A stretch of DNA of 32,000 nt from Aquifex aeolicus VF5 (GCF_000008625.1 NC_000918.1:1519336-1551335), one strand, 5' to 3'; positions 18,485 to 28,245 are shown, counted from the first letter of the stretch. Translations and numbers: made by a program. Notes: generated by a model from the letters alone, not told the origin.

Positions 18485-19261
18485 ATGGCTCACACTGAAA
18501 CCATGCACCACGAAGAAGTAAGTGTCTGGCCATTTGTGATCGGTATGGGGATGTTATTCGCACCGATAGCCTTGACCGCTTACTTTGCGTGGCAAAACCA
18601 CATGGCCGGACTCGTACTGGGAGGGTTGTCCCTAATCCTGATACTCTTCGGAGCTGCAGGTTGGGCAAACGAACACTTTACAAAGGATCGTGAACACGGA
18701 CTGGGAGCACTGGGAACGTACTTCTTCATAATCACGGAAGCTGTAATATTCGGAACGATGTTCGCAGCCTACTACACCGCAAGGGTAACTCACGCTCACG
18801 AGTGGGCAAACTGGGTTCCTGAAGGTATAAGCCTAGCAATGGCAGGACTGCTTACCTTAATCCTGTGGGCATCTAGTTACACCATATGGAAAGCAGAAAC
18901 AATACTTGAGGAAGAAGGTAATAATGGAAAAGCTCTCAAGTGGGTATTCTTCACCTTTGTACTGGGACTGCTCTTCGTAATCCTTCACGTAAACGAGTGG
19001 AAGCACCTCTGGCATGAAGGATTTACCTTAAGCTCCAACATGTACGGAACTGGATTTTACGCACTCACGGGACTCCACACTTCACACGTCCTCCTCGGAC
19101 TTATAATGCAACTCTACTGTATGTGGCTTCTTGCAACCGGTAAGATGACTCAACTGAGACCTACGGTTCTCAGGGCTACTTCTGCATATTGGCACTTCGT
19201 AGACTTCATGTGGCTCCTCGTAGCAGGTTCTGTTTACATAATCGGAACCTTAGGGGTGTAA
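18485..19261 (+). CDS. coxC: Cytochrome c oxidase subunit III
   Basis: Seven-helix membrane protein with the subunit III pattern (YWHFVDFMWL). GGAGGTG lies upstream of the ATG. Confidence 0.85.
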   Translation: MAHTETMHHEEVSVWPFVIGMGMLFAPIALTAYFAWQNHMAGLVLGGLSLILILFGAAGWANEHFTKDREHGLGALGTYFFIITEAVIFGTMFAAYYTARVTHAHEWANWVPEGISLAMAGLLTLILWASSYTIWKAETILEEEGNNGKALKWVFFTFVLGLLFVILHVNEWKHLWHEGFTLSSNMYGTGFYALTGLHTSHVLLGLIMQLYCMWLLATGKMTQLRPTVLRATSAYWHFVDFMWLLVAGSVYIIGTLGV

Positions 19262-19262
19262 G

Positions 19263-20060
19263 ATGAGAATTCTTCTCTCTTTCCTCTTTCTTATTACTCT
19301 TGTTTTCGGAGGAGCTGTTGGACCTTCCAACAAAGCATTTGATGACAACGATATGTTCAATCCCGAAATACTAAAAATCAATGAAAAACAATACCTCGGA
19401 AATTTTGTTCCGAATGTTGAAGTAATCTTAGAAGACGGAACGAAAACGGATCTGTACACCTTAATAAAAGAAAAACCCACTATACTCCTTCTTTCCTACT
19501 ACACCTGTGAGGGTACCTGCCCTGTAAGGGTTGACAACTTAAAGAAGTTAATCGACGAAACGGATTTAAAAGACAGAGATTTTATGGTTCTCAACCTCTC
19601 TTTTGACGAGAGGGATGACCTCCAAACTTTGAAGGAATTTGTAAAACTACACGGGCCTTTCACTAAACACTGGGTGTTCGGAATAATCGATAAAGAAAAT
19701 ATAGAAAAACTTACTAACTCCGTAGGGTTCAAGTTCTTCTTCGTGGAGAGGGACAAGACATTTGTGCATCCAAACGTTTACATCTTCCTTTCCCCTGAAG
19801 GGAGGATAACGAGGTATCTCTGGGGAGTAAAGCCAAGCTACAGAGATGTGAGAATAGCCCTTGCGGAAAGTACACAAAACAAGATAACTGTAAACTCCAT
19901 AGTAGATCTCGCTTACATAGCCTGTTTTACTTACGATCCTTCAAGGAGTAGATACGTCATAAATCCGACTTTGCTCTTTGGTGGTATTGGTTTTTCTGCT
20001 TTAGGTTTGGTCGTGCTATCTGGTCTTTTGATGAATAAACTTAGGAAGAAGGAGGTGTAG
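19263..20060 (+). CDS. SCO1/SenC-family copper chaperone with a C-terminal membrane anchor
   Basis: Thioredoxin-like fold with CEGTCP (CxxxC) and a distal His (FVHPNVYIFL). It has an N-terminal signal-like segment plus a C-terminal TM helix. Confidence 0.8.
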   Translation: MRILLSFLFLITLVFGGAVGPSNKAFDDNDMFNPEILKINEKQYLGNFVPNVEVILEDGTKTDLYTLIKEKPTILLLSYYTCEGTCPVRVDNLKKLIDETDLKDRDFMVLNLSFDERDDLQTLKEFVKLHGPFTKHWVFGIIDKENIEKLTNSVGFKFFFVERDKTFVHPNVYIFLSPEGRITRYLWGVKPSYRDVRIALAESTQNKITVNSIVDLAYIACFTYDPSRSRYVINPTLLFGGIGFSALGLVVLSGLLMNKLRKKEV

Positions 20061-20062
20061 TC

Positions 20063-20773
20063 ATGGAGCAAGTTATTGCACTGCCCTATAAGTGGTGGGC
20101 AGAGGCTGTAACTGTCTGGCTTATAGTAGCCGTAGTGATCTATTTAATCGTCGCAATACCGGGTATTTACTTCATCTACAAGTACAGGTACAAGCCCGGT
20201 GAAAGAGAAATAGGGGACCACGACTTTGAGGGACACATGGGCTTAGAAGCACTTCTTACCATAATTCCACTGCTTACGGTCATATTCTTAGCAACATACT
20301 CCTTTACCATATTTAAGAAGCAAAGAACTGTACCCGACGGAGCGATGACGATTAAGGTAACCGCTTTCATGTGGGGATGGCAGTTTGATTACCTCGACGA
20401 AAACGGAAAAGTTATAAAGACTGTGGTTACCGGATACCACGCAAACGACTACAACCTGCAGGAATTTGAAAAGCCTGTAATACCCGCAGGTAAACCTATA
20501 AGAGCTCTGCTTACGTCTATGGACGTAATACACTCATTCTTCGTGTTACCTGCAAGGATAACTGAAGACATGGTTCCTGGAAGAACGACATATCTGTGGT
20601 TCCAGATTAACAAGCCTGGTGAGTACTGGGTGTTCTGCAGGGAGTACTGCGGAACAGGACACTCTCACATGTTTACTAAGTTAAAGGTTGTTCCTCCTGA
20701 GCAATTTACAGCTTGGCTTTATGGTAAAAATGAAGTTGCTATAAAATCTAACAACAAGGAGGTAGCAAGATGA
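20063..20773 (+). CDS. coxB: Cytochrome c oxidase subunit II (CuA)
   Basis: Two N-terminal TM helices and a cupredoxin domain with DVIHSFFV and CREYCGTGHSHM. Confidence 0.9.
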   Translation: MEQVIALPYKWWAEAVTVWLIVAVVIYLIVAIPGIYFIYKYRYKPGEREIGDHDFEGHMGLEALLTIIPLLTVIFLATYSFTIFKKQRTVPDGAMTIKVTAFMWGWQFDYLDENGKVIKTVVTGYHANDYNLQEFEKPVIPAGKPIRALLTSMDVIHSFFVLPARITEDMVPGRTTYLWFQINKPGEYWVFCREYCGTGHSHMFTKLKVVPPEQFTAWLYGKNEVAIKSNNKEVAR

Positions 20774-22392
20774 GGTAAGCAGTTCACGTAGAGAAGCCAT
20801 ATTTTCTCGGAACTTTAAGAGAGTGGCTCTTTACTACCGATCACAAAAAGATCGGAATACTTTACTTTACGACCAGCTTCCTCGTTTTCCTTATAGCGGG
20901 TGTATTTGGTCTGCTCGTAAGGCTGGAGCAGTCTGTGCCCGGGATGCAGGTCGTTGACTTCAAGACCTATAACTACTTACTTACCGGGCACGGAGTAGGA
21001 ATGCTCTTCTGGTGGGCTATAGCAGCTCACATAGGAGGATTCGGTAACTTCCTACTCCCCTTAATGATTGGAGCAAAAGACGTCGCATTTCCCAGACTGA
21101 ACGCGCTCAGCTGGTGGGCATTCTTTGCAGCAAACGTACTCTTCCTTATGACTCTTATCCCGGGAAACCACATAATGACTATGTGGACCGGATACCCACC
21201 CTTCTCCCTTAACAACGATGCGGGAGTAACAGCTCTCTACGTATTCGTAATGCACTTACTCGGAGCATCTTCTATAGCAACCGCTGTTAACTTCCTTGTT
21301 ACTTACATTACGATGAGAGCTCCCGGATACACCTTCTTCAAGACGAACCTCTTCGTACATACTCTCATAGCTGCTAACGTAATTCAGCTTGTAGGTGTTC
21401 CTTCTCTTGCAGGCGCAGTTACGATGCTCTTCCTTGACAAGTACCTCGGAACTAACTTCTTTAACCCCGCTAAGGGTGGAGACCCCCTCATATACCAGAA
21501 CATTTTCTGGTTCTACTCTCACCCTGTTGTTTACGTTCAAGTTCTACCGGTATTCGGTTTCTACTCCGAAATAATTCCCGTATTCGCAAGGAGACCTCTC
21601 TTCGGATACACCTCTATGGTATTTGCAGTTTGGGCAATAACGGCGGTAAGCTTCTTCCTATGGATACACCACATGTTCGTTTCCGGAGTACCCAACTGGA
21701 CAAGAGTACTTTTCTCCTACACCACACTCCTGATAGCAGTTCCCACAGGAATTAAAATCTTCAACTGGATGTTAACTCTATACAGAGGGGCAATTCACTT
21801 CAGATCACAAATGCTCTACGCACTCGGTGGAGTGTTCATGTTCCTCATAGGTGGTCTCACAGGGTTACCTCTTGGAATGGTCGCTATAGACCTGGGTGTA
21901 TCCGATTCTTTATTCGTAGTAGGACACTTCCACTACGTTCTCGGGATGGCTATTACCCTCGGAATTCTCGGAGCTGTAATACACTGGTTCCCCCTTGCAA
22001 CAGGAAAGTACTACCCTGAAAACCTCGGAAAACTCAGCTTCTGGCTCATATTCGCAGGAGCAAACATCTTCTACTTCCTCCAAATGGTCGCAGGTATGCT
22101 TGGTAATCCCAGAAGGTATCCTGACTATCCTCCCATACCCGAATGGACAACCCTCCACGTAATACAGACTATCGGAGCTCTCATACTCGGTGTAGGTGTA
22201 GTAATCTTCACATACGGAATAATTAAGGGACTCAAAAGCGGTGAAAAGGCTTCAGACAATCCCTGGAAGTCTCCTTCTCTTGAATGGAAGGTCGGAGTTC
22301 CCGCAAGGGCACACGGTCACGGAGACCATCCTCCCAGGGTAGAACCCGACTGGCACCCATACAGATACGACAAAGAAGAAATACTCAAGTGA
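20770..22392 (+). CDS. coxA1: A-family haem-copper oxidase subunit I, interrupted by an in-frame TAA at codon 3. The longest canonical-start ORF is 20935..22392.
   Basis: AAGGAGGT precedes an ATG at 20770 that overlaps the coxB stop as ATGA. The sequence then reads AGG, TAA (20776-20778). The same frame continues as AVHVEKPYFLGTLREWLFTTDHKKIGILYFTTSFLVFLIAGVFGLLVRLEQSV, the conserved start and helix I of subunit I. That stretch has no in-frame ATG, GTG or TTG until 20935. Downstream motifs include WFYSHPVVY and HHMF. Confidence 0.85.
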
Positions 22393-22617
22393 TTTCTCCT
22401 CTTTCCTTCCTCTATATTTTTTTATTTGAAAAAATTAATTACTTTTTGATCACAAAATCACTTTTATCTTAAATTTGAGCTAAAACATAAAACAAAGAAA
22501 CATATTGATTTTCAATTAGTTTAATCTTGTCAGTAAGTTAGTATTACTTGACAATTACAAGTTTGAGGTGAAAAATTAATTATGTAGCTCATAAAAACTC
22601 GTGAGGAGGTGTGAAAA

Positions 22618-22743
22618 ATGAATGAAAAGCATGAACATGAGGAATTTTTCCCGTCGGGTACAATAGCATTTTTTATCTTCATGATGGTCTTTTATGCGGT
22701 TCTCTGGTTCATGATTTACTGGGTTCTACTTGAAAGGGGGTAA
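22618..22743 (+). CDS. ba3-type oxidase small subunit IIa, a 41-aa single-TM protein not in the ORF track
   Basis: GAGGAGGTG precedes the ATG at 22618. The translation is MNEKHEHEEFFPSGTIAFFIFMMVFYAVLWFMIYWVLLERG. It has one TM helix and a C-terminal RG like Thermus ba3 subunit IIa (from memory). The stop is 6 nt before the coxB2 ATG. Confidence 0.7.
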   Translation: MNEKHEHEEFFPSGTIAFFIFMMVFYAVLWFMIYWVLLERG

Positions 22744-22749
22744 GGAGAG

Positions 22750-23200
22750 ATGGACAGGGCTGAAAAAACAGGACTAACTTTAGCTTTAATACTTCTGCTT
22801 ACCTTCTTTAGCTTGATCGTTTACGCTGCAAAGGGACTCAAGATAGACATTCCCCACGTGTGTAACGGACGTAGAACCCTTCCAGGAAGGGAAACTCATT
22901 AAACACGGGGACAAGAGGTACGAACTCCACATACTCGCAAGGATGTGGTACTTTGATTTCAACAAAGGTGCTACCGAAATAAAGATACCCGTAGGTTCCG
23001 TAGTGGACATATTCACGACTTCAAAGGATGTAGTTCACGGTGTACATATTCATGGAACCAATTACAACGTAATGGCAATTCCCGGAACTGTTGGTTACAT
23101 GAGGATAAAGTTTGAAAAACCCGGAGTTTACCACGTTGTTTGCCACGAGTTCTGCGGTGTTGGTCACCATGCTATGCAAGGAAAAATAATCGTTGAATAA
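22750..23200 (+). CDS. coxB2: ba3-type (B-family) oxidase subunit II, split by a +1 frame break near the C4 run at 22852-22855
   Basis: AAGGAGAG precedes the ATG at 22750. That frame encodes a TM helix (MDRAEKTGLTLALILLLTFFSLIVYAAKGLKIDIP) and stops at 22900-22902. The +1 frame is open from 22847 and encodes TCVTDVEPFQEGKLIKHGDKRYELHILARMWYFDF...DVVHGVHI...CHEFCGVGHHAM (CuA). The listed ORF 22943..23200 is only the C-terminal part. Confidence 0.8.
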
Positions 23201-23214
23201 AGGAGGTGTGGGTG

Positions 23215-24984
23215 ATGCAGGTGAGCAATGCAATTAAGTTTATAATCCTCACAGAAATTATATTTCCCACTCTACTTCTGGTGTTCGGTATATACCACGG
23301 TGTAATGCAGGTTTTCTATAGATCAGGAATTATAAAAGCTGAAAGCTTCCTCGGAATTGATTACTATCAAGGCCTAACACTCCACGGAGTTATAAACGTA
23401 ATCGTTTACACAACGATATTCATCGTTGGATTTTCCAACGCAATAGTAGCTTACTCACTCAAGAAACCCTTAAGGGAAAAAGTCCAGTGGATAGCCCTCG
23501 GAATGATGGTTATCGGAACCCTTATGGCAGCATGGGCTATGTTCACTGGAAGGGCAACCGTACTCTACACCTTCTACCCACCTCTAATAGCTCACTGGAC
23601 CTTCTACTTGGGAGCTGTACTCTTAGTACTAGGTTCACTGGTACCCTTTTTCTTTGATTGGATACCGAGTGCAATCCAGTGGAAGAGGGAAAATCCCGAC
23701 CAAAAACTTCCCCTTGCAGTATTCGGAACCTTTGTGAACTTCATCCTCTGGACCATAATGATCGTTCCCGTAGCGATTGAAATACTCTTCCAGCTCCTAC
23801 CCCTTTCTCTCGGACTCGTTGACGAGATTAACCCCTTACTTGCAAGAACTCTCTTCTGGTTCTTTGGACACCCGGTAGTTTACTTCTGGTTACTCCCCGC
23901 ATACGTAGCACTCTACACGATACTTCCCAAGATTGTTTCCGAAAAAGGAAAACTTTACTCTGACCCTGCAGCAAGACTTGCGTTCATACTCTTCCTAATA
24001 TTCTCACTGCCTGTAGGACTCCACCACCAGTTCACCGACCCTGGAATTACTAATACGTGGAAGCTCATACACGCACTCTTTACCTTCGGTGTTGCACTTC
24101 CCAGCATGATTACCGCGTTCACGGTTGCAACGTCTCTTGAGTACAGCGTAAAGGCTGAACACCCCGAACTCAAGAACTCCAAGTTCTACTGGTGGACCTT
24201 CCTGCCCTTCATGAGGCTTGAAGGAAACAAGTGGATGTTCTCCTACTTCTTCGCAGGACTCGTACTCTTCTTCATCGGAGGAATTACTGGAATAGTTAAC
24301 GCTTCTTACAACGTAAACCTCGTAGTTCACAACACCGCTTACGTTCCCGGACACTTCCACACGACAGTTGGTGGACTCGTATTACTCGTATTCTTCGCAC
24401 TATCCCTCTACATGGTATCCAAGCTAAGGGGAAGTGAAGTAAAACTGAAGGGACTAGCGGTTCTCGCACCCTACTTCTGGATGCAGGGAATGTTCATGTT
24501 CTCTTACGCTATGATGGTAGGAGGTGTAGTAGTAGGCTTCCCCAGAAGAACCAACGCAGGACTCACGTACCTGAACCCCGACTCTCCCCTCTACAGACCT
24601 GAGTGGACCGGATACGCACAGCTTGCGGCAGTTGGAGGAGTACTCCTCGCAATAGGATTTGCCTTCTACTTCGCATCACTCATAGCTACCGCTCTCGCTC
24701 CCAAAGTCAGGGAAAGTACCCTTGAGTTCCCCATAGCTGACGCTTACCACGACGCACCCGCACCCCTTCTCAACAATCTCAAAACTTGGACCGTAGCAGC
24801 TATAATTCTCGCAGTACTCTCCTACATACCGCCCCTTTACGACGCATCCGTAAGAGGAGTATTCTTCAAGTCACCCGCTTACAACGAAAAGTTCCCGATG
24901 CCTCTGAAACAGCTCCAAGGTGCTGAAAAGAAAGAAGAAAAGAAAGAACTCTCAAAAGCTGAAGGGGGTATCACTCAGAAATGA
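23215..24984 (+). CDS. coxA2: B-family (ba3-type) haem-copper oxidase subunit I
   Basis: Multi-helix protein with WFFGHPVVY, GLHHQF and VPGHFHTTV. AGGAGGTG lies upstream, with the ATG at 23215. The listed start at 23206 is a GTG inside the SD. Confidence 0.9.
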   Translation: MQVSNAIKFIILTEIIFPTLLLVFGIYHGVMQVFYRSGIIKAESFLGIDYYQGLTLHGVINVIVYTTIFIVGFSNAIVAYSLKKPLREKVQWIALGMMVIGTLMAAWAMFTGRATVLYTFYPPLIAHWTFYLGAVLLVLGSLVPFFFDWIPSAIQWKRENPDQKLPLAVFGTFVNFILWTIMIVPVAIEILFQLLPLSLGLVDEINPLLARTLFWFFGHPVVYFWLLPAYVALYTILPKIVSEKGKLYSDPAARLAFILFLIFSLPVGLHHQFTDPGITNTWKLIHALFTFGVALPSMITAFTVATSLEYSVKAEHPELKNSKFYWWTFLPFMRLEGNKWMFSYFFAGLVLFFIGGITGIVNASYNVNLVVHNTAYVPGHFHTTVGGLVLLVFFALSLYMVSKLRGSEVKLKGLAVLAPYFWMQGMFMFSYAMMVGGVVVGFPRRTNAGLTYLNPDSPLYRPEWTGYAQLAAVGGVLLAIGFAFYFASLIATALAPKVRESTLEFPIADAYHDAPAPLLNNLKTWTVAAIILAVLSYIPPLYDASVRGVFFKSPAYNEKFPMPLKQLQGAEKKEEKKELSKAEGGITQK

Positions 24985-27832: not shown

Positions 27833-27876
27833 TTCTGGTGTAAGTAAACAGGTAAACCACGGAGGAGGTGGACGGA

Positions 27877-28245
27877 ATGAAATTAAGACCCCTTTACGAC
27901 AAAATAGTTGTTGAAAGGCTTGAAGAAAAGGAAGAGAAAACTCCTTCTGGTATCATCATCCCCGATACTGCAAAGGAAAAGCCTCAGCTCGGTAAGGTTG
28001 TAGCTGTAGGTCCTGGAAAGCTTTTAGACAACGGAGAACTTAAGCCTTTATCTGTTAAGGAAGGTGACGTAGTTCTCTTTAACAAGTACGCTGGTAACGA
28101 AGTAGAGATTGAAGGAAAGATTTACCTCGTTATGTCTGAAGACGAAGTTTTAGCTGTTGTTGAAGATTATTCAAGCTTAATAGGAGGTGAGGTGAGATGG
28201 CAGCAAAGGCAATTATCTACAACGAGGAAGCAAGGGCAAAACTAA
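27877..28245 (+). CDS. groES: Co-chaperonin GroES/Cpn10 with a ~25-residue C-terminal extension
   Basis: Canonical GroES core from [12 protein letters not shown] to EDEVLAVVE, followed by [36 protein letters not shown] lies upstream and the ATG is at 27877. The 3' end overlaps groEL by 49 nt. Confidence 0.9.

Follow-up and report, generated by a model that had tools for sequence, protein, structure and literature searches.

A stop at codon 3 of coxA1 probably silences the A2-type cytochrome c oxidase of Aquifex aeolicus VF5

Among hyperthermophilic bacteria, Aquifex aeolicus VF5 serves as the reference for the biochemistry and structural biology of the respiratory chain. It is usually said to encode two cytochrome c oxidases. 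In VF5 membranes, only the ba3 oxidase (CoxA2/CoxB2/IIa) and the bd oxidase were found; the second oxidase (oxidase I), if expressed, was at least tenfold less abundant, which the authors blamed on low oxygen (Prunetti et al. 2011, PMC3128077). A cryo-electron microscopy study of an A. aeolicus oxidase sample likewise described only CoxA2/CoxB2/IIa (PMC8251803). Why is the second enzyme missing? We analyzed a stretch of 32,000 nucleotides (nt) of the VF5 genome (NC_000918.1:1519336-1551335, hereafter the window), in which coxA1 (20770–22392, 540 codons), the gene for the subunit I of an A2-type heme-copper oxidase (HCO), carries a single disabling lesion, an in-frame TAA at codon 3. Positions are given in the window, where a coordinate equals the genome coordinate minus about 1,519,335. 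The primers of Prunetti et al. (PMC3128077; genome 1,541,988 and 1,542,353) matched exactly at 22653–22672 and 22997–23017. The genes coxC-sco-coxB-coxA1 and all of their signals described below lie on the + strand.

The coxB–coxA1 junction contains complete signals for translation initiation. A Shine–Dalgarno (SD) sequence, AAGGAGGT (20756–20763), is followed by the 6-nt spacer AGCAAG and an ATG (20770–20772), which corresponds in alignments to the start codon of the orthologues of 540/541 aa. This ATG overlaps with the coxB stop TGA (20771–20773) as ATGA. In the junction alignment, the SD sequence was invariant in all five aligned species. The opening codons are ATG AGG TAA, and the frame from the conserved start is thus interrupted at 20776–20778; the same frame is then open to 22392. 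Codons 4–55 (20779–20934, 52 codons) encode transmembrane helix I and, before it, the N-terminal tail AVHVEKPYFLGTLREWLFTTDHKKIG, and contain no ATG, GTG or TTG, so this coding stretch is stranded behind the stop. GTG 20935 is the first canonical in-frame start after the TAA, with GGAG 6 nt upstream. The ORF that is called mechanically from it (20935–22392, 485 aa, GenBank AAC07899.1) keeps helices II–XII and all metal ligands, and lacks helix I. A preliminary description, made from the sequence alone, had reported the textbook signals, the stop codon, the stranded helix I and the shortened ORF, and each of these features was confirmed.

The identity of the gene product was examined with profile and structure alignments, which bore out its earlier assignment as an A-family subunit I. 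The translation from 20779 matched the Pfam COX1 profile end to end (1.8e-136, positions 1–436 of the hidden Markov model). It also matched TIGR02891 (CtaD_CoxA) from model position 1 with 582 bits; this is the best-scoring family, though the equivalog cut-off of 670 was not reached. Such a full-length match to the COX1 and CtaD profiles requires reading through the TAA, or from just after it. The best match among solved structures was 2YEV_A, the subunit I/III of Thermus thermophilus caa3 oxidase (1.7e-130). Alignments with 2YEV_A and 7JRO_a revealed the motifs TGHG, GAKDVAFPRLN, GGFGN, SHPVVY, WIHHMF, PTGIKIF and VGHFHY. The six histidine ligands of the heme and CuB, the cross-linked tyrosine, the K-channel lysine, and the D-channel aspartate and asparagine were all present, with roles that we take to be those known from the bovine and Paracoccus cytochrome c oxidases. 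The helix-VI motif is FWFYSHPVVY in CoxA1, FWFYSHPTVY in 2YEV (A2) and FWFFGHPEVY in mitochondrial A1 enzymes. By the rule reportedly laid down by Pereira and co-workers in 2001, A2 enzymes are recognized by a Tyr-Ser motif in helix VI where A1 enzymes have a glutamate. Because helix VI of CoxA1 has Tyr-Ser and no A1 glutamate, the protein is classified by its sequence as an A2-type enzyme, a type of which the caa3 oxidase of Rhodothermus marinus is a further example. The Aquifex and T. thermophilus (PDB 2YEV) proteins are alike from the N-terminal tail to the C-terminus, including the helix-VI Tyr-Ser, the channels and the six histidines. They differ in that the Aquifex subunits I and III are separate proteins, the Aquifex CoxB (236 aa) has no fused cytochrome c domain, and the VF5 coxA1 gene is broken at codon 3.

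The stretch upstream of GTG 20935 was then compared with homologues. The 2YEV_A alignment begins at query residue 13 and 2YEV_A residue 15, well upstream of GTG 20935. In a set of about 120 homologues, the TTDHK motif stood 7–42 residues from the N-terminus of every full-length protein; it was missing only from contig-edge fragments and from three VF5 database models. None of these homologues started near codon 56, and none of about 110 full-length ones lacked helix I. The similarity around TTDHK is therefore genuine and far beyond chance, and homologues do not start near 20935. These alignments argue that the 52 codons upstream of GTG 20935 are true coding sequence.

To establish the ancestral state of codon 3, the locus was compared in A. 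pyrophilus JCM9492, three Aquifex sp. assemblies, a lineage of Aquificaceae metagenome-assembled genomes and a further lineage of 82% identity. The gene order was sqr / coxC-sco-coxB-coxA1 / (IIa)-coxB2-coxA2-sco in all of them. All junctions read TAAGGAGGTAG....ATG AG(G/A) GAA GC, and the proteins have 540–541 aa and start with MREA. The closest CoxA1 relatives (91–95% identity, 540 aa) have the N-terminus MREA(V/I)HVEKPYFLGTLREWLFTTDHKKIG. Two further metagenome contigs, recovered with a relaxed DNA pattern search, show this junction too, again with GAA at codon 3. The intact Aquifex orthologues (A. pyrophilus WP_459774757.1 and Aquifex sp. WP_461831524.1) are 94–95% identical to the VF5 protein and share its cluster order, SD sequence and ATG, but their codon 3 is GAA where VF5 has TAA. 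Since every relative examined has GAA with the same start and the same SD sequence, VF5 coxA1 carries a G-to-T substitution at 20776, which turned the ancestral GAA (Glu3) into a stop codon. An exact DNA pattern of the VF5-type junction, in which 20776 was left free, had no match in metagenome or genome contig collections, and hence no wild allele in a VF5 background, with either TAA or GAA, was recovered by it. A separate observation concerned one JGI metagenome protein (544 aa), in which the first ~110 residues resemble another subunit I lineage (MSKSYFDETHCAIGHPKTKVMQWLLTVDHKRIG...) and the rest is Aquifex-like. It probably comes from a chimeric contig.

The 1998 reference sequence has a documented error nearby. 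The stretch between coxA1 and coxB2 contained one nucleotide too many, which had shortened coxB2 and hidden subunit IIa (PMC3128077). That error lies in the same seven-gene oxidase cluster of the same reference genome and likewise led to a shortened annotation of an oxidase subunit; it was, however, a 1-nt insertion removed by resequencing, whereas the TAA in coxA1 arose by substitution and is still seen in independent reads. We searched de novo assemblies of public runs (Logan) for those encoding the exact VF5 CoxB or the 482-aa CoxA1 remnant. All three assemblies with DNA over the junction (ERR15087784, SRR29904084 and SRR22575694) read ATG AGG TAA, and the junction was identical over 261–444 nt. 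Over 20.7 kb (10063–30773), ERR15087784 differs from the reference by 11 single-nucleotide polymorphisms (SNPs) and three indels. It lacks the C at 22852 (C run 22849–22855), an extra base that splits coxB2 of the reference into ORFs of 50 and 85 aa. Without this C, CoxB2 has 149 aa, in agreement with the published correction (PMC3128077). ERR15087784 also lacks the T at 28170, which gives a groES product of normal length (100 aa, ending ...VVEDYQA); the reference groES (ORF 27868–28245) encodes a product of ~122 aa with an odd tail overlapping groEL. This T is probably a second indel error of the reference, or else a difference between stocks. With 11 SNPs and three indels that include the published coxB2 correction, ERR15087784 was not derived from the reference. 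It is independent and still retains the TAA, so the TAA is real. Some derived SNP states are found in ERR15087784 and others in the reference (coxA2 T306A and A472V), and by this pattern the two appear to be slightly diverged sister lineages, with the TAA older than their split.

The SNPs of ERR15087784 showed an odd pattern. All ten coding SNPs were nonsynonymous and ten of the 11 were transitions, and an inserted A at 23492 frameshifts coxA2, which encodes the ba3 subunit I. Laboratory mutation accumulation, mutagenesis or assembly noise might explain this pattern rather than natural divergence. Over the same 20.7 kb, SRR29904084 was 100% identical to the 1998 reference, including the extra C at 22852 and the groES T. 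The suspected errors may be real in some stocks, or this run may not be independent (for example, simulated or mock data).

The state of the rest of the gene was assessed with the ratio of nonsynonymous to synonymous substitution rates (dN/dS), calculated by the Nei-Gojobori method (NG86). Between VF5 and A. pyrophilus, dN/dS of coxA1 was 0.041 (dN 0.032, dS 0.78). The values among intact coxA1 orthologues were 0.028–0.043, and that of the expressed coxA2, again VF5 against A. pyrophilus, was 0.052. In this dN/dS test, the A-type operon genes showed no acceleration relative to the ba3 genes. At the columns invariant in 19 homologues (60–95% identity), the only private changes of VF5 were E3-to-stop and the conservative K526R. 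VF5 coxA1 has no other stop codon or frameshift, and it shows no relaxed constraint of the kind expected of a pseudogene. Because the lesion is recent and secondary decay is absent, the gene would be an "incipient" pseudogene at most. The dN/dS values and private changes suggest that the lesion occupies roughly 1–2% of the VF5 branch at most, since longer neutral drift would have given more private changes at invariant columns. The nonsense mutation thus appears recent on the species timescale, and older than the ~0.05% divergence between the two VF5-like lineages.

These findings led us to a reading to which we give a probability of about 80%: a real and recent nonsense mutation in an otherwise intact A2-type oxidase gene, leaving the enzyme null or nearly so. 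Ribosomes would load at the conserved SD sequence and ATG, either directly or through coupling to the overlapping stop of coxB, make fMet-Arg, and terminate at the TAA. With no canonical start codon ahead of the end of helix I, full-length subunit I would be absent or present only in traces. From the sequence, VF5 is accordingly predicted to lack the A2-type cytochrome c oxidase (CoxA1/CoxB/CoxC) or to have almost none of it, and respiration would depend on the bd oxidase and on the ba3 oxidase, whose genes lie just downstream. The stop at codon 3 most simply explains why only the ba3 cytochrome c oxidase has been found in VF5, as the preliminary description had stated and PMC3128077 reports. 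Full-text literature searches returned no paper that refers to this stop codon, and no expression data for coxA1. This genetic explanation is simpler than low-oxygen culture, and it predicts that the enzyme will not appear in VF5 when the O2 supply is changed. An Aquifex A2 oxidase is better studied in A. pyrophilus or in wild Aquifex, where the genes are intact. The event itself is ordinary, a nonsense mutation with no new mechanism, and its importance is local to Aquifex bioenergetics and annotations. Strain-specific unitary pseudogenes, with single nonsense mutations in redundant respiratory genes, are the nearest parallel. They likewise have one lesion, in one of several terminal oxidases, and no decay, and coxA1 fits among them in that its product has never been detected, although its loss of function is here deduced from sequence. 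It differs in that the lesion is so near the start that annotation pipelines pick downstream starts instead of flagging it.

Several points weigh against this reading. The absence of further damage is also expected if selection still acts on an expressed coxA1. The reference and ERR15087784, each with private changes, have the TAA in common, so it cannot be put down to a very recent artefact of culture and must have lasted for a while. The GGAG 6 nt before GTG 20935 could allow translation of a product that lacks helix I. The public runs were judged by their assembled sequence, and they may be DNA or RNA, real or simulated; the independence of SRR29904084 is uncertain.

The preliminary description had offered four explanations for the stop: a nonsense mutation, a base-call error, readthrough, and reinitiation at a non-canonical codon. 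The first was supported and the second was contradicted by the independent assemblies, while the last two gained no positive support. If they operated, coxA1 would still be functional at a low level, through occasional readthrough of UAA or reinitiation at AUC 20851 or AUA 20857. Such a start would keep the hydrophobic core of helix I, and the AUG-AGG-UAA mini-ORF would be a strong attenuator and not a knockout. We consider this unlikely. The rest of the ORF is intact (dN/dS 0.04, one conservative singleton) and two slightly diverged lineages share the TAA, as low-level function would predict; absent decay fits recency equally well, however, and the A-type enzyme has never been detected (PMC3128077). 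The in-frame alternatives of translation table 11 before the end of helix I are ATC 20851, ATA 20857, ATA 20893, and CTG 20911 and 20923. ATC 20851 and ATA 20857 fall at codons 28 and 30, and RefSeq picked this ATA as the start, but no SD sequence was found upstream of any of the five codons.

The stop context is UAA-G. UAA is the least leaky stop codon, and UAA-G is a strong terminator context. No stop at codon 3 was found in any relative, all orthologues having GAA, and therefore nothing points to an evolved, conserved recoding site. A 121-nt region at the stop folds at −30.1 kcal/mol, better than its shuffles (z = −3.2 at 37 °C), with a hairpin at 20788–20835, ~10 nt past the TAA. A hairpin 3′ of the stop could favor readthrough, but this one sits in conserved coding sequence, is near-identical in relatives without the stop, and would be much weaker at 85–95 °C. 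By eye, a single difference was seen in the stem, in an Aquifex sp., and it breaks a pair rather than being compensatory. A search of Rfam gave no match. It is rather improbable that, at 85–95 °C, a few ribosomes read through the UAA or resume at the AUC and AUA of codons 28 and 30, and so keep a trace of working A2 oxidase. If this were true, it would explain the undecayed 537 codons and the allele common to two lineages. Rescue by frameshifting was rejected: past the AGG, the +1 frame (AAG CAG TTC ACG TAG) closes after four codons and is not the COX1 frame, and the coxB frame ends at TGA. A scan for a suppressor tRNA, limited to the window, found only tRNA-Pro. Promoter and terminator scans around the coxB–coxA1 junction gave nothing better than shuffled sequence.

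A subunit I starting at GTG 20935 or ATG 20944 might instead be a real product that works without helix I. The GGAG before GTG 20935, the position of all heme and CuB ligands downstream of it, and the calling of this ORF by two annotation pipelines are in its favor. Set against them, none of the about 110 full-length homologues lacks helix I, and the protein sequence encoded by the 52 upstream codons is as conserved as the rest of the gene, which argues that these codons were coding until very recently. Helix I is part of the conserved 12-helix core of subunit I and packs beside the D-pathway region. Its loss would leave helix II needing a translocated N-terminus. A functional short product is therefore very improbable. 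That the TAA is a mistake of the 1998 reference and the true codon GAA is hardly credible: the published extra C near 22852 and the probable groES error at 28170 give this idea its footing, but those are single-base indels and the TAA is a substitution, three other run assemblies have it, ERR15087784 fixes both suspected indels and carries SNPs of its own while keeping the TAA, and the Glu3 version of VF5 CoxA1 (540 aa) was absent from a collection of 15 billion proteins that holds the shortened versions, which argues against a hidden correct version.

None of the three public models of coxA1 is flagged as disrupted. They have 482 aa (ATG 20944, Logan caller), 485 aa (GTG 20935, GenBank and UniProt O67935) and 511 aa (RefSeq WP_274532232.1, MLYFTT...). 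The start of the last, an ATA at 20857–20859, was derived from the length of 511 aa, and it has no SD sequence. Exact look-ups of the 485-aa form, with V or M as the first residue, gave no match; the 482-aa form was matched. The starts of these models are annotation conventions and not evidence of use. A published HCO phylogeny (PMC9731990) includes O67935 as its "A1" Aquifex sequence. The models are inconsistent, silently lack helix I and enter such phylogenies, and we caution against their use.

The genes before coxA1 were also inspected. The gene coxC (18485–19261), the first of the four, encodes the A-type oxidase subunit III. It is intact, matches Pfam COX3 over its full length (1.2e-24), is syntenic in all relatives, and has a dN/dS of 0.067 against A. 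pyrophilus. The gene for a SCO1/SenC-like copper chaperone (19263–20060, Pfam PF02630) is intact and syntenic in relatives as well. Subunit II with its CuA site is encoded by coxB (20063–20773), which scored 149 bits with TIGR02866 (CoxB), above the cut-off, and contains the motif CREYCGTGHSHM. The coxB genes of A. pyrophilus and of the Aquifex sp. assemblies have a TAA stop of their own, 12 nt before the coxA1 ATG. In VF5, a 1-nt deletion removed the T of this ancestral stop and added five codons (KEVAR) up to the TGA; the extended coxB passes through the coxA1 SD sequence and ends in the ATGA overlap (20750–20773). As the lineage of 82% identity has the same ATGA overlap, it is a natural variant and not damage.

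Downstream of coxA1, the best promoter-like match in the region was TTGACA and AAAAAT separated by 17 nt (10/12), at 22548–22576, within the 225 nt from coxA1 to coxIIa. Its position between these genes suggests that the ba3 genes are served by a separate promoter and so need not be affected by any polarity of the stop in coxA1.

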